A stretch of DNA of 64,000 nucleotides from Chlamydiia bacterium (GCA_044359535.1 JBIKLZ010000001.1:9163-73162); one strand, 5' to 3'. Positions 12,001-18,000 are shown, counted from the first letter of the stretch. Numbers are program-made.

Positions 12001-15000
12001 ATAGAGAGTGTTTTTTCTCTTGTCTACGATTGATTTCCACCCCCTTGCCCCATGGGAGGGTGTAACCTACTTCGGCAAAAAGACAACTAGAAATAAAAAG
12101 GAGGAGGAGTTTAAAAGCCATAGCGTAGCATAAGGATAGGGTATAATTTATGATCGCGCATTCTGTAGTGAGCGGCCCCTTCAAAAACCCGTGTGTTAAA
12201 AAATTCAGCTTCGTGTTTTGCCCCAACAATCCCTCCAAAATACCATCCTGATTCAAAGCTGAGTGTAAGTAGCGCTGCAGGAAGGTTGTCATTTTTATAA
12301 AAGTAGACAGCTGCAGCTGTTGTAAGGCCATTAATAAATAAAGCAGTGAGTGCCGATTGCTTTTGTCCTAAGTATAAATAGCCAAGTCCCGGCAAAATAG
12401 CGTTTAAGCCAGAGGCTAATGTTGGATTTTTTCTATGATGGAGATACTCTTTATACAGCTCATCAGAGGCTTTTTTGCACTCTTTAAGGGCGTAGAGCTC
12501 TTTAAGCTTTTGTTCTTCTTTTTCATAGGAAATCTCTTTAGAGATCAATCCCCTTTCAGTTTCTTCAAAAAATTGAGAATCAAGGGAGGTTTCTACCGAC
12601 GCTATTAAAGAGTCAATAGAGGGGTTTTTAAGAGTGCTTTTTAGCCCATCAATGTCTCCTGAAAGGATAGAGGAAGTAAGTGCTAATTTCTCTTTTTCAA
12701 AAGGGAAGGTCTTTTCCATCACCTTTAGGATAGTTTCACTTTTTTCTCCCTCTTTTTGACTTGTATAGGCATCATAAAGGATGACTAAAAGATCGTGAAA
12801 AGCTGAAAAGGTGGGTTCAATAGTGGCTAAAAGGGATTGCTCGAAAAATTCTGTTGCTAATTGGGGTTGTCCCCCAAGATAATAGGCCTTAATAATATGG
12901 TAATCCATTTCTCGACACCTTTGAAAGTGGTCTTTAGGGATCAGGATTGATGCCCTTTTAAAGGCAGTTATTGCTTGGTATAAATCCAATTGTTTTCCAA
13001 AGCTAAGGCCAATATGGTATTCTTTACCCCATTGAGTTTTTCTTTCTTCTTCTGTTAGGGGAGCAAAGGGGGAGTCTAACTGTTGCATATAGATCTCTTG
13101 AACAAAATATCCAAGTTTTGGGGATAAGGTTTCAGCTCCTAAAAAGCTAATAAAAAGCAATGCCAGATAGATCATAAAAATAAAGTATAGAGACAGATTC
13201 TATTATTGTCTAGTCATCGTAATCATCTTCATTGTCATCCATCTCATTTTCATCAGAAGAGGATTTTCCAAGCTCTAATCCTTGTGAAAAATCTTGAATG
13301 TTACATTGCCCTTCTTGAGAGAAAATGGCTTCTTGCTGTTTTGTAATTTCATTGAAATCATGAGAAGAATGGATGATATGGGGTTTTATAAACATAATCA
13401 CATTTCGATTGGTCACTGTCTTTTCAGTCTTAGAAAAAGCCGCTCCAATGAGGGGAAGGCCCCCTAAGCAAGGAATTCCAGCAACATTTCGGACCGTATT
13501 GTTCACCATTGTACCACTGAGTAAAACAAAGTGGCGATCTGGAACCCGAATTTTTGTAGTCATATTGGTTTTTGCTGTACGAATTCCGTTAATAGTTCTT
13601 GAATCCACACTATCGGAGCTGTCGGAAGTTCCGTCATTGACCTCTTCAGAAATTTCTTCGTCTACATCTAAGGTAATCATCCCATCAGAGCTGATATTTG
13701 GAGTGATACTTAGGGTCACACCAATATTTCTATACTCTAAGTTGGCGTTTGTTGTTTGAGACAATCCAGAAGTGGTTACAAGCGATCCAGTAAAAGGGAC
13801 GTTTTGTCCTGAAAAGATCTTGGCATTCTGGTTGTCTTGGGTGACAATTTTTTGTGTTAAAACAACCGTTGTGGTCCCATCTGTCCTTAAAGCATTGACA
13901 AGAGATCCAATAGATGAATACGATTTTCCATTGTGAAAAATGATATCTCCAATAATCCCCATATACCCCCCAGCAAGGGGAGGAACAGCTTGACCTGTAG
14001 GTGTTGTTGTCCCATCAATTTTATTCAAATTTAAGGCAAAAGGGATTGCAGGGCTGTCGGTTTGTGGTTCAAAATTGCCCAACGAGTAGCCAAATTTATT
14101 ATTTAAGGTCCCCTTATTTTGCCAGCTTAACCCAAAAGAGGTGTCGTGATCTAAGGTTGTATCAATGACCAGTATCTCAATAAAGACTTGAGAGATGGGT
14201 CTATCGACAGACTTAAGGACTTGGTCCAATTTTGTTAAGACAGCTGGAGCTCCTGTAGCTATCAAAGAGTTGGTTGTTTCAATCCATTGGATAGAGCTGA
14301 TTGCTTGAATTAAATCTTGATTGAATTTTGAACTTTGTTGTTGAACGCCAAGGCTTATACTGATTTTTTTTAATGCAGAAACAATTTCATTTCCTTGGAT
14401 ATTTTGAATTTTATAGAGCAAAAACCCTTGATCATTGGCCGCTTCTAGAAGAGTTTGGTCAGGGGCAAAACCACGGGCTTCGATAGTATCAAACTGTTTT
14501 AATAGGGCAACGACTTCTAAAACAGAATCTTTTGCCCCCGATACAATAATCGTATTGGTCTTTTGAACAAAACTTAAATGGTCTACAACTTCAGCAAGAG
14601 AGGGGTTTGTCATCCCACTATGAACAAGGTGAGACTCAAAACTTGCCACCATTAAAATCAATTCTGGACCTGGAACGTATTGGGGGACATAAATTTGATA
14701 CCCTTCGACATCTTTTCTCCCCTCTTTATTCGGTTGATAGGCTAAAGAGGCTCCAATATCTAAATCGACAAGGAGCTTTTGAAGCTTTTGCAACGCCTCA
14801 TTACTCCCAACAAAAACAAGGCTGTGGCTATTTTTAATGTAGCGGACCGATTCTATTGCATAGTAGAGGGCTGAAGTTTTCTTCTGTTGAGCTCTAGATT
14901 CTTCAGCAATAGCTTTTAATTGTGCAATTAACTCTGTAGGAGAGGCCTCTTTCACTTTATAGACTAACACATTGGATCCAAAAGCAGAGGTGATATCTGA

Positions 15001-18000
15001 CTCTTTATCCACTTTTGCTAAAATTTCTTTTAGCTTGTTGATTGAGTCCATTGTCCCGACAAATTGAACAGAGTCTGAGTCCTGAATTTGCCTCATCGAA
15101 GCTATAGTTTTAAACAAGGGAGAGTATCCTGGTTTAGATACTTTTTTTGAGTCATCGACAATTTGTTGTAAAATGGCTTGCAACTCTTTGAAAGATAAAC
15201 TGTTTAATTCGTATATAAATACAGTTGTTTCATCTAATCCATCATGACTTTGCATGTCCAATTTTTCAACAAGACTATTTAAACGGGCAAGGGCGGTTGA
15301 AGTTCCTGTAAAAAGCAATTGCTCTGATTCTTGGAGTACTTTAATACTTGATAAAGCTTTCATAAAAGCAGGATCTGACAAATCAGAGGAGGCTAAATTG
15401 TCTAAAGTCTCCATCACAAGGGTTTTTAAATGTTCTGCGTCGGTGTTTTTTGGGGTAAAAACTAAAAATTCTGTCGAAGGGGGCGCCTGTGTGAGCATCT
15501 CTTTTGCTTCAGAAATGGCTACGTCAAAGCTAGGGAGAATCTCAGCTACCTCTTTAAGGGATTTTGTTGTCCCCACAAAAAGCAAAGAGTTGGTCGCTTT
15601 TATCCATCTCATCGATGAAATGGCTTTTATCAAGTTTTCGTTTGGATATTCATGCGATTTTAGGTAGTCAACTAAATTAGATAAAGCATCGCCTAATTGT
15701 TCTTCTGATGCTTTTTGAATATTATAGAGATAAAATTGGGAAACCCCTGTTTTTCCTGTGTCCCCACTATAGGATTGAGTGACTGATTCTAAAAGGTCTT
15801 TAAGCTCTATTAAGGTGGGCTGTGGAACAACAAAGAGTATGGAATTAATATCGTAAATTGGGACGGCATTTTTAATCACGTAGAGAAGATTTTGATTTAA
15901 GTAGCCAGATTTTTGCAAGCTTTCTGAGATTTCTTCCAAAATTTTCAACATTTGAGGAATGCTGATTTCATCAGATTCATAGAGAAAAAAAGAGGTATTG
16001 CTTGATCCTAAAAAGGTATTTTCAACATCGATATTTTTCAAAAAACCATCGATAAGGGCAAGATTTTCAGGAAGTCCAATCATTAAAAGAGAGTGAGTCG
16101 ATCGAATGTATAAAGCACTATCTACAATTTTTTCTAAAGAGGAAACATCTAATCCTTGATCTTTTGACTCCTTAAAAATATTTTTCAAAGTCGCTACTAC
16201 ATCTACTTCACTTTTATAAATAAGGGGGTAAATCAACACATTTGTCGGATTTAGCCTTTTATTTTGAGAGGAATAGGTGATACTTGAATCAATTTCTTTA
16301 AGTAATGAGAGGGTTTTTTCAATTAAATAGGGGGTAGAAACAATATAAAGAGTGTTTGAGTCAGGTTGAGCTATGATTTGCAACAGGGTTGTTTCAGAAA
16401 AAGGTTTCATAATCTTTTCAGAAAAGATCTGCAACTCTAAGACATTCATATTTTCAGCTTCATAAGTATCAATATCATAGGGAGTGTCAGGGACATCTAA
16501 ACTCTTAAGAAGTTGCTGAACAGTTTCAATGCTTGAAGCCACATCTGTAACAATGATTTGTTGGGACTCAAGGGAGACTTCAACCATTGCACTTGTTGAA
16601 AGAAGGGGGGAGATTAAGGCGGCAATATTTGTGGGATTGCCATTATAGATCTTAAAGACACGGGTCATAATGGCGGGCATTTTCCCTAAAGTGGCATTGT
16701 CTTTAGTGATCACTGTCGGAATTTGCTTCACGGCGGGGTTTCTGTGAATGATTAAATTTTTCCCCTCCTCAATAAGGGAGAGGTTATTAATTCTAAGAAT
16801 TTGAATCAAAGCACTTTTAACATCTTCTAAAGAGGTGGGTTTATCTGAAACAAAGGTGATGTTGAAATTCACCTCACTTTCATTATAGACAAGGTTTAGC
16901 CCCCCAATTTTACTTATAAATTGAAGCAATTGGGTCATTTGAACATTTTCAAAATTGATCGTGTACCCCTCATCGGTTGGGGAAGGATCCTTTCCAAATA
17001 AGGATAGGCTGGCTAAAAAGCTGATGAAAAATAGTTTTATTTTGCTCATTAAATAGGAAGGCTTTGAATTAGATCTAACAAGTTGTGATCCTAACCAAAT
17101 TCTTTAATCAATGCAACAAATTTTAGAATTTAAAACTATCGATAGAAATAAAAAGGGGAGAATTGTATATGAAAAGTAAAGAATAGGTAAAGAAAATGTG
17201 GAAAAAGAGAAAGAGAAGAAAAAAGTCCCCCCTTTCTGAAAAAGAGAAACAAAGGAAAATGCTTAAAAATAGTGAGTGGATCCTTGTAGGCATTTTTTTT
17301 GTTGCAGTATCAGAAATAGTTATAAAAAAGTATGAATTAACGTGGCGCTACTTACCCTATACATGTGCAGTTCTTTGGGTTTTAGCGATGCAGATTTTTT
17401 TAAGGATGGTGCACATATTTACAAGAGGGGCCACTTACTTTCTAAATTCCCTCAAGGACTTATAGTTATATTCTATACAAAGAGAGGGTGAAGTTTTGAT
17501 TGGAATGAACTTTTTTTCCCTCCAATTTTTCAAAAACCACTCGACATAGCGCTTTACTTTCTAATAAACGGTTTTCTAATAGGGTTTTAACAGTAAGTTC
17601 CCCGATCTGCGTTGTTTCTTTTGTAGGGAGCAAAGGATCAGAAAACGAATGGATAAAACAGATATCCCCTTCAGAAAATGGATCGATAGTTGGGTAAAAG
17701 TCTGCAGTTGGAAACTGTCCTAATGGGGGCGTTTTATTTAGCAAAAGTCGGGGATGGGAACCATTGGATGAAATATGGTAGATGCTTTCTTGCATCGATG
17801 TGATATGGGCAAGGGTCCTTGAGGCGGGAACAATATGTATGAGAGTGGTATGGGTCTTTTTATGAAGTCTATCATAATAAAGGAGGGTGTTTAATTCATT
17901 TGCAAAGGATTGCAATGAAAAAACAGAAACTTTAGTTGAGTGTTGGTAGGGATTAACAAGGGTATGAGCCATAGCGCGTAGATTGATGATGGGTAAGTAA

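Follow-up and report, generated by a model that had tools for sequence, protein, structure and literature searches.

Secretins are usually treated as assemblies of two to four fixed periplasmic rings, and the basal bodies of injectisomes as structures of near-constant height. The injectisome outer-membrane rings formed by InvG, YscC, MxiD and EscC are built from secretins of about 560-610 amino acids (aa) that possess N0, N1 and N3 domains only. The secretin of Chlamydia trachomatis, CdsC (CT674), is atypically long at 921 aa and is part of an elongated, 34-nm basal body; its extra residues were ascribed to a hydrophilic domain of 250 aa at the N-terminus, considered unique, and to insertions of the kind found in type II secretion systems (T2SS) (PMC4682100). 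All chlamydial injectisomes use a T2SS-like secretin, and phylogenetic analysis places their secretins among those of the T2SS type (PMC3459982), while separate SctC and GspD orthologue clusters have been reported in Chlamydiae (PMC2811131). In a different secretion system, the PilQ secretin of Thermus thermophilus, which serves type IV pili and DNA uptake, has six N-rings (N0-N5), an unusual number, that span a wide periplasm (PMC5745081) and stack into a channel about 35 nm long (PMC4463427). Here we describe a secretin gene located at positions 13210-17049, on the minus strand, of a 64,000-nucleotide stretch of DNA from Chlamydiia bacterium (GCA_044359535.1, JBIKLZ010000001.1:9163-73162; hereafter the window). 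The gene encodes a 1279-aa protein of T2SS/GspD type, the SctC/CdsC equivalent of a chlamydial injectisome, in which seven additional N3-like modules have been inserted between the N2 and N3 domains.

The domain order of the protein, whose segments are all given here with minus-strand coordinates, is signal peptide, N0, N1, N2, seven N3-like modules, N3, secretin barrel and a conserved tail. A probable Sec signal peptide (aa 1-19, MSKIKLFFISFLASLSLFG; 16993-17049), read directly from the sequence without the use of a predictor, precedes an N0 domain (aa 31-99; 16753-16959) that scored 28.1 bits against PF21305, for which the cut-off is 27, and that was matched to the N0 of XcpQ/GspD by alignment and by Foldseek. 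Module 1 (aa 120-192; 16474-16692) is the N1 equivalent: it has the short canonical beta-alpha-beta-beta-alpha pattern in the DSSP assignment of the predicted structure, contains the best-scoring Secretin_N stretch (aa 129-188) and is collinear with N1 of XcpQ. Module 2 (aa 193-260; 16270-16473) is equivalent to N2 according to the self-trained profile described below, the XcpQ alignment and the DSSP assignment. The seven extra modules, M3 to M9 (14452-16269), occupy aa 261-350, 351-428, 429-521, 522-604, 605-683, 684-773 and 774-866. Module 10 (aa 867-960; 14170-14451), which is collinear with N3 of XcpQ, GspD and PulD, runs straight into the beta-barrel region (aa 961-1230; 13360-14169), which aligns with XcpQ (5wln) at an E value of 7e-33. 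The Pfam core of the barrel (PF00263, aa 1053-1226) was recognized with 121.9 bits against a cut-off of 27.5 (E 2.8e-35). This core, the N0 domain and the beta-alpha-beta-beta-alpha N-domains, the last two recognized by Pfam, by DSSP assignment of the predicted structure and by Foldseek, place the protein in the secretin superfamily. The C-terminal tail (aa 1231-1279; 13213-13359) ends in an acidic run, has a consensus that is conserved within the family in the homologue alignment and occupies the position at which the S domain is found in T2SS secretins.

The array of modules is both real and old. The Secretin_N family (PF03958) matched nine stretches of the protein, with a total of 139 bits and a whole-protein E value of 5.1e-41 in Pfam. 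A profile hidden Markov model (HMM) trained on the window secretin alone resolved ten modules between about aa 120 and 960, of which modules 1 and 2 are short and modules 3 to 10 (aa 261-960) are longer, at about 80-93 aa. A preliminary description of this DNA had reported a 1279-aa secretin with about nine repeat modules in the span 14203-16473, and this count agrees with our analysis, since the span corresponds to aa 193-949 and holds nine modules, with N1 lying just upstream. The same description had each repeat close with a helix ending in aspartate; that residue is found in nine of the ten modules, M4 being the exception, and it is invariant or nearly so across 13 homologues. The strand motif that it proposed for the repeats occurs in its strict form in five modules and is degenerate in the remainder. 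The modules of the window secretin are 9-32% identical to one another and no tandem repeat was found in the array at the DNA level, so the duplications that gave rise to them must be old and neither a recent repeat nor an artefact. The possibility of a recent tandem duplication or an assembly artefact was ruled out by these identities, which do not exceed 32%, by the lack of a DNA repeat and by the recovery of the identical protein from independent metagenome contigs.

By profile HMM and structure prediction, the extra modules have the genuine fold of secretin N-domains, which is KH-like and of the ring-building kind. An AlphaFold2 model of aa 24-1000, computed from a 40-sequence alignment and having a mean pLDDT of 73, displays ten successive copies of a strand-helix-(helix)-strand-strand-helix pattern by DSSP. 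In modules 3 to 10 one helix is added after the first helix, giving the arrangement beta-alpha-alpha'-beta-beta-alpha. When the model of the array was compared with the Protein Data Bank (PDB) by Foldseek, every match was to the periplasmic domain of a secretin, the best being N0-N1-N2 of XcpQ and GspD at E values of about 1e-12. Because matches of the full array could stem from its N-terminus alone, the extra modules M4-M6 (aa 351-604) were modelled separately, with a pLDDT of 79. The best matches of this second model were N1-N3 of the T2SS secretins ExeD, GspD and EpsD (E 1e-7 to 2e-6), followed after this top group by XcpQ, then InvG and then KH-fold proteins. These matches show that the extra modules adopt the KH-like fold of the secretin N-domains with one helix added. 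The suggestion of the preliminary description that the repeats are secretin-N folds is thus borne out by the PF03958 HMM and by the AlphaFold monomer with its Foldseek matches.

The two ends of the protein reveal its ancestry. Residues 26-255 are collinear with N0-N1-N2 of XcpQ, and residues from about 880 to 1240 are collinear with N3 and the barrel of T2SS secretins; thus the protein is a GspD-type secretin into which seven modules have been inserted between N2 and N3. All chlamydial injectisome secretins, this one included, go back to a GspD-type secretin of the T2SS, and the T2SS-like sequence of the protein agrees with the way the CdsC-type secretins have been defined (PMC3459982). GspD, XcpQ, PulD and ExeD are its best matches in both sequence and structure and are collinear with it at both ends, but they have three N-modules where the window secretin has ten, and unlike them the window secretin falls below the family cut-off for GspD and is encoded among genes of a type III secretion system (T3SS). 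The plain GspD architecture, N0-N1-N2-N3-secretin, is therefore exceeded by the seven added modules, and the canonical SctC architecture, N0-N1-N3, differs from the N0 plus ten modules found here. The earlier view of the array as an expansion of an N0/N1/N3 secretin accordingly has to be replaced by N0-N1-N2, seven extra modules and N3. InvG, YscC, MxiD and EscC share with the window secretin the role of injectisome outer-membrane ring, the N0 domain, the N-domain fold and the secretin barrel, but they belong to a different secretin clade, and by sequence the InvG match is confined to the barrel. The contention that the window secretin is far longer than the characterized T3SS secretins stands.

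CdsC is likewise encoded downstream of cdsQ and pkn5. It has the same T2SS-like ancestry, contains N-domain insertions and is part of an elongated basal body (PMC4682100, PMC3459982), and the length of about 920 aa given for it in the preliminary description is correct (921 aa; PMC4682100). In CdsC, however, a Chlamydiaceae-specific hydrophilic N-terminus of about 250 aa is followed by classical N-domains only, whereas the window secretin lacks such a region, its N0 starting at about aa 27, and possesses the seven extra modules between N2 and N3. The hydrophilic N-terminus may define only the subfamily of the Chlamydiaceae. PilQ of T. thermophilus offers the best functional analogy, because it too has surplus beta-alpha-beta-beta-alpha N-domains; the N-domains of the window secretin also number more than three. 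PilQ, on the other hand, has six rings in 757 aa as compared with eleven N-domains in 1279 aa in the window secretin and up to 24 modules in its family, and its expansion was an independent one: the PilQ chains that were matched align only to the C-terminal region of the window secretin, from about aa 896.

The assignment to the injectisome comes from synteny. SctD, CdsG, SctN, SctO, SctQ and a Pkn5-like kinase are all encoded upstream of the secretin gene on its strand, and the order sctQ-pkn5-secretin corresponds to cdsQ-pkn5-cdsC, the order in C. trachomatis. Since the gene lies within a chlamydial injectisome cluster, its product is the CdsC/SctC equivalent, the outer-membrane secretin of a chlamydial type III injectisome. 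The earlier naming of the protein as SctC therefore holds by gene order, whereas by sequence the protein is of the T2SS/GspD type (314 bits for the GspD family versus 90 for SctC), a circumstance already known for chlamydial secretins (PMC3459982).

Long arrays are common among the relatives of the window secretin. With a cut-off of E <= 1e-10, 181 relatives were recovered, and the best 120 of these together with ten cluster members were analyzed. Nearly all are 1121-2066 aa long, and those that carry a name belong to Simkania, Simkaniaceae, Rhabdochlamydiaceae and 'Chlamydiia'; domain databases annotate repeated Secretin_N matches in homologues. A relative is encoded in 502 species-representative genomes, and the best 80 loci come without exception from metagenome-assembled genomes (MAGs) of environmental Chlamydiota, where the secretins are 1167-1790 aa long apart from truncated copies. 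These lengths indicate that the window secretin is typical of the Chlamydiota outside the Chlamydiaceae and stands at the short end of their range. Its length had been considered unusual. In comparison with the Chlamydiaceae (921 aa, from the literature) this is so; elsewhere in the phylum long orthologues are the norm and the window copy is among the shortest. Across the family the number of modules ranges from 7 to 24 and is correlated with secretin length (r 0.94, about 77 aa per module). The secretin of Simkania negevensis has 15 modules in 1764 aa, and the upper end found by an exhaustive profile search is a protein of 2368 aa with 24 modules, in which N0 and the barrel are intact.

Comparison of the arrays module by module shows how they have changed. 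In close relatives the modules are one-to-one orthologous. In all homologues the positions of N1, N2 and the two final modules are conserved and the middle of the array is variable, with lineage-specific block duplications whose modules are at most 48% identical. The extra modules thus go back to old duplications within the central part of the array. A search with residues 531-921 of C. trachomatis CdsC, obtained by optical character recognition (OCR) from the supplement of Nans 2015, returned fragments only. The closest species-representative genomes are lake MAGs that are labelled Chlamydia trachomatis; the label is evidently wrong, and their secretins, which are 64-78% identical to the window secretin, have the long environmental architecture.

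If each module added a ring to the periplasmic tube, a longer tube would need a longer needle and rod, and the SctP ruler should lengthen too. An open reading frame (ORF) of 487 aa, located at 20871-22334 (minus strand) between the YscO-like and SctQ genes, encodes an SctP-like protein, a putative needle ruler whose N-terminal region is disordered and whose C-terminal domain, of about 100 aa, is conserved. This domain, with its '...YDTAP.SF...' motif, is shared by a second ORF of 194 aa (20260-20844, minus strand). The 487/194-aa pair between sctO and sctQ is conserved in many related loci and seems to have arisen by duplication of an SctP-like or T3S4-like protein. After the SctP-like ORFs had been sorted by position from the short paralogue and from truncated ORFs, 34 loci entered the fit, and the lengths of the secretin and of the SctP-like protein were correlated (Pearson r 0.79, p 3e-8, n=34). 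The unsorted set, in which the short paralogue and truncated ORFs were mixed in, had given r 0.35 and was rejected as contaminated. The slope of the regression, 0.35 aa per aa, amounts to about 27 aa of SctP-like protein per secretin module. Independent contrasts on a neighbour-joining (NJ) tree built from Pkn5 and SctQ gave r 0.80; the two lengths change with the same sign in 24 of 32 contrasts, including all of the eight largest. The lengths of other proteins of the locus were unrelated to that of the secretin (Pkn5, r 0.23; SctQ, r 0.11; the product of the downstream gene, r -0.16). C. trachomatis was outside the fit, and for its 921-aa CdsC the regression predicts a ruler of 294 aa, while CdsP is 283 aa long. 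The YscP ruler is reported to measure about 0.19 nm per residue, a figure on which 27 aa would correspond to about 5 nm, so that the step per module would be of the same order as the height of one N-ring. The covariation fits a longer periplasmic conduit.

We therefore consider it reasonably probable, though by no means assured, that this T2SS-derived injectisome secretin forms a stack of module rings that sets the length of the conduit, with the ruler keeping step. Each module would contribute one ring to the secretin oligomer. Secretins assemble into outer-membrane rings of 12-15 subunits, and the oligomer here is presumably a 15-mer, like the T2SS and T3SS secretins of solved structure; the entries of the solved T2SS relatives matched in the PDB contain 15 chains each. 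The rings would stack into a periplasmic tube that reaches from the contact of N0/N1 with the inner-membrane ring to N3 and the barrel. At about 4 nm per ring, the scale of Thermus PilQ, eleven N-domains and a barrel would make a tube of roughly 45-55 nm. Conduit length would then be tuned by the number of modules, and the requirement that needle and inner rod lengthen in step would explain the growth of the SctP-like protein by about 27 aa per module. The longer conduit put forward in the preliminary description thus gains indirect support from the length covariation, and the stacking on which it depends is drawn from homology. The accompanying idea that the added modules substitute for other ring components finds no support because SctD is encoded nearby.

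Several observations weigh against a rigid stack measured by a ruler, and they have to be set beside two other accounts of what the modules do. Both the formation of rings by the extra modules and their axial stacking are inferred from homology, and the naming of the 487-aa ORF as SctP, the needle ruler, from synteny and domain layout only. The latter ORF had no match in Pfam or NCBIfam, a profile of its C-terminal domain had no match among PDB sequences, and BLASTP found no similarity between it and the OCR-derived sequence of C. trachomatis CdsP. When the five largest contrasts were dropped, the correlation fell to r 0.30 on what is a rough NJ tree, so the signal comes from about five independent shifts. 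Full stacking of the array would also exceed the length of the 34-nm basal body of C. trachomatis (PMC4682100). In other bacteria there are T2SS secretins with 40-45 Secretin_N domains, which can hardly be imagined as a simple stack, and the length of a conduit therefore does not have to follow from its number of modules. Finally, the modules of the AlphaFold2 model are joined by low-confidence, disordered linkers of 7-15 residues, which would also fit an arrangement that is flexible or compressible. Rather than a rigid tube, the extra modules could accordingly make a flexible, compressible concertina, or could fold back into a wider or double-walled chamber, and the basal body would then adapt to a variable distance between inner and outer membrane or contract on contact with the host. 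Besides the linkers, this proposal can draw on the basal body of C. trachomatis, whose length falls from 34 to 29 nm upon contact with the host, a change that the authors credited to the linked periplasmic domains of CdsC and CdsD (PMC4682100), and on the implausible length of full stacks of 15-24 modules, or of at least 40 in the giant GspDs. It is harder to reconcile with a ruler-like protein that scales with the secretin by about 27 aa, close to one ring height, per module, which is better fitted by an extended state, and the N-rings of Thermus PilQ do stack. We regard such a concertina or chamber as less likely than the rigid tube.

The modules might instead serve mainly as binding platforms for peptidoglycan, outer-membrane complex proteins, the TPR-like protein encoded downstream or periplasmic parts of the injectisome. 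The KH-like fold is versatile, and Foldseek also matched KH proteins; moreover, 76 of the 80 loci contain a homologue of the exported 354-aa protein, which is nearly always encoded directly downstream of the secretin. However, the modules are nearest to secretin N1-N3, which form rings, they lie in line between N2 and N3 with no side branch, and a smooth range of copy numbers from 7 to 24 suits a function in length better than the binding of a specific partner, all of which makes a platform role improbable in our estimation. Even less credible is the notion that the gene encodes a type II secretion secretin, GspD, whose T3SS neighborhood is coincidental. The best family score of the protein was indeed for GspD (TIGR02517, 314 bits), with 90.5 bits for SctC (TIGR02516), T2SS secretins are its best PDB matches, and some sources label homologues as GspD. 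Yet the GspD score is split into four stretches and lies under the cut-off of 351.35, just as the SctC score lies under its own of 238.45. The sctQ-pkn5-secretin order recurs: among the 80 loci, 54 have a pkn5 homologue and 52 an sctQ homologue, almost all of them upstream and on the strand of the secretin. No T2SS genes were found beside the secretin among the annotated neighbors, nor was there a second secretin within the 64-kb window. Chlamydial injectisome secretins group with the T2SS type in the published phylogeny (PMC3459982), and in the chlamydiae the orthologues of SctC and GspD fall into separate clusters (PMC2811131).

Tandem expansion of N-domains has occurred elsewhere to an even greater extent. 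Between N0 and barrel, giant secretins of 3400-5131 aa (P0250, P0254, P0257-P0260) contain 40-45 Secretin_N domains. One of these proteins (locus L083, 10001-20476) ends a classical T2SS operon that comprises gspE, gspF, pseudopilins, gspK and PilN/O-like genes. The MAG from which it comes, GCA_022072055.1, is non-chlamydial and unclassified, and its GspE shares about 50-56% identity with the GspE proteins of Hinthialibacter, Omnitrophica and Planctomycetota. The giant proteins exhibit the same kind of expansion between N0 and barrel as the window secretin, but their arrays are four times longer and match its module profile much more weakly. We found no description of them in the searchable open-access literature.

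Already known are the fold itself, the descent of chlamydial injectisome secretins from those of the T2SS, the fact that CdsC is unusually long and the use of extra N-rings to span a wide periplasm. We found no description of a tandem Secretin_N array or of a long chlamydial SctC in the open-access literature, and four features appear to be new: the array of 7-24 modules that environmental Chlamydiota have in their injectisome secretins, the placing of this insert between N2 and N3, the evolution of copy number in the middle of the array and the covariation with an SctP-like protein. For the window genome itself the value of the observation is modest, because its secretin is a typical and rather short member; the interest lies at the level of the family, which on a phylum scale departs from a fixed ring number while a neighboring ruler-like protein changes in step. 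It is tempting, if speculative, to propose that conduit length in Chlamydiota is an evolvable modular trait, set by an N-ring copy number of 7-24 and co-evolving with the ruler, with basal bodies of roughly 45-90 nm or of a telescopic build, and with at least 40 rings in some T2SS secretins. If the modules stack, each should lengthen the basal body by about 4 nm. If this were true, the basal bodies of environmental chlamydiae would be far longer than those of any injectisome imaged so far, and they would show a trans-envelope machine fitting its length to the geometry of the envelope.

The neighboring injectisome genes are all on the minus strand. The Pkn5-like Ser/Thr kinase (17466-19040; Pkinase E 2e-43) is encoded immediately upstream of the secretin and is preceded by the C-ring protein SctQ (19041-20345; TIGR02551 E 1e-23 and FliMN_C). 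Beyond the SctP-like pair lie SctO, which is YscO-like (22331-22831; PF16789 E 2.8e-28), the ATPase SctN (22828-24195; TIGR02546, 644.6 bits against a cut-off of 604.75) and the inner-membrane ring protein SctD with its FHA domains (25877-27586; TIGR02500 E 6.6e-48). With two FHA-like stretches in 569 aa, SctD of the window is much shorter than C. trachomatis CdsD, which is numbered past residue 780 and has an extra N-terminal segment of 360 residues (Nans 2015 supplement), and the sizes of SctD and of the secretin shift in opposite directions between the Chlamydiaceae and the lineage of the window.

Downstream of the secretin is the conserved partner gene (12111-13175, minus strand), whose 354-aa product carries a signal peptide, matches TPR weakly and has hydrophobic segments in its C-terminal part. 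The product had no family match in Pfam or NCBIfam and could act on the secretin as an accessory or pilotin-like factor. The end of this gene is overlapped by an ORF for a YidD-like membrane-insertion efficiency factor (11741-12331, minus strand; TIGR00278 E 2.5e-16), which is 126 aa long in the JGI call and in which the Cys residues of the usual motif are seemingly replaced (SHFRPTSSQY). The secretin gene, the 354-aa gene and yidD may form a transcription unit of their own. A scan for promoters and terminators upstream of the secretin gene gave counts no higher than those in shuffled sequences. The 417-bp gap between pkn5 and the secretin gene (17050-17465) contains a terminator-like hairpin at 17237-17208 on the minus strand, followed by a promoter-like site at 17191-17162.

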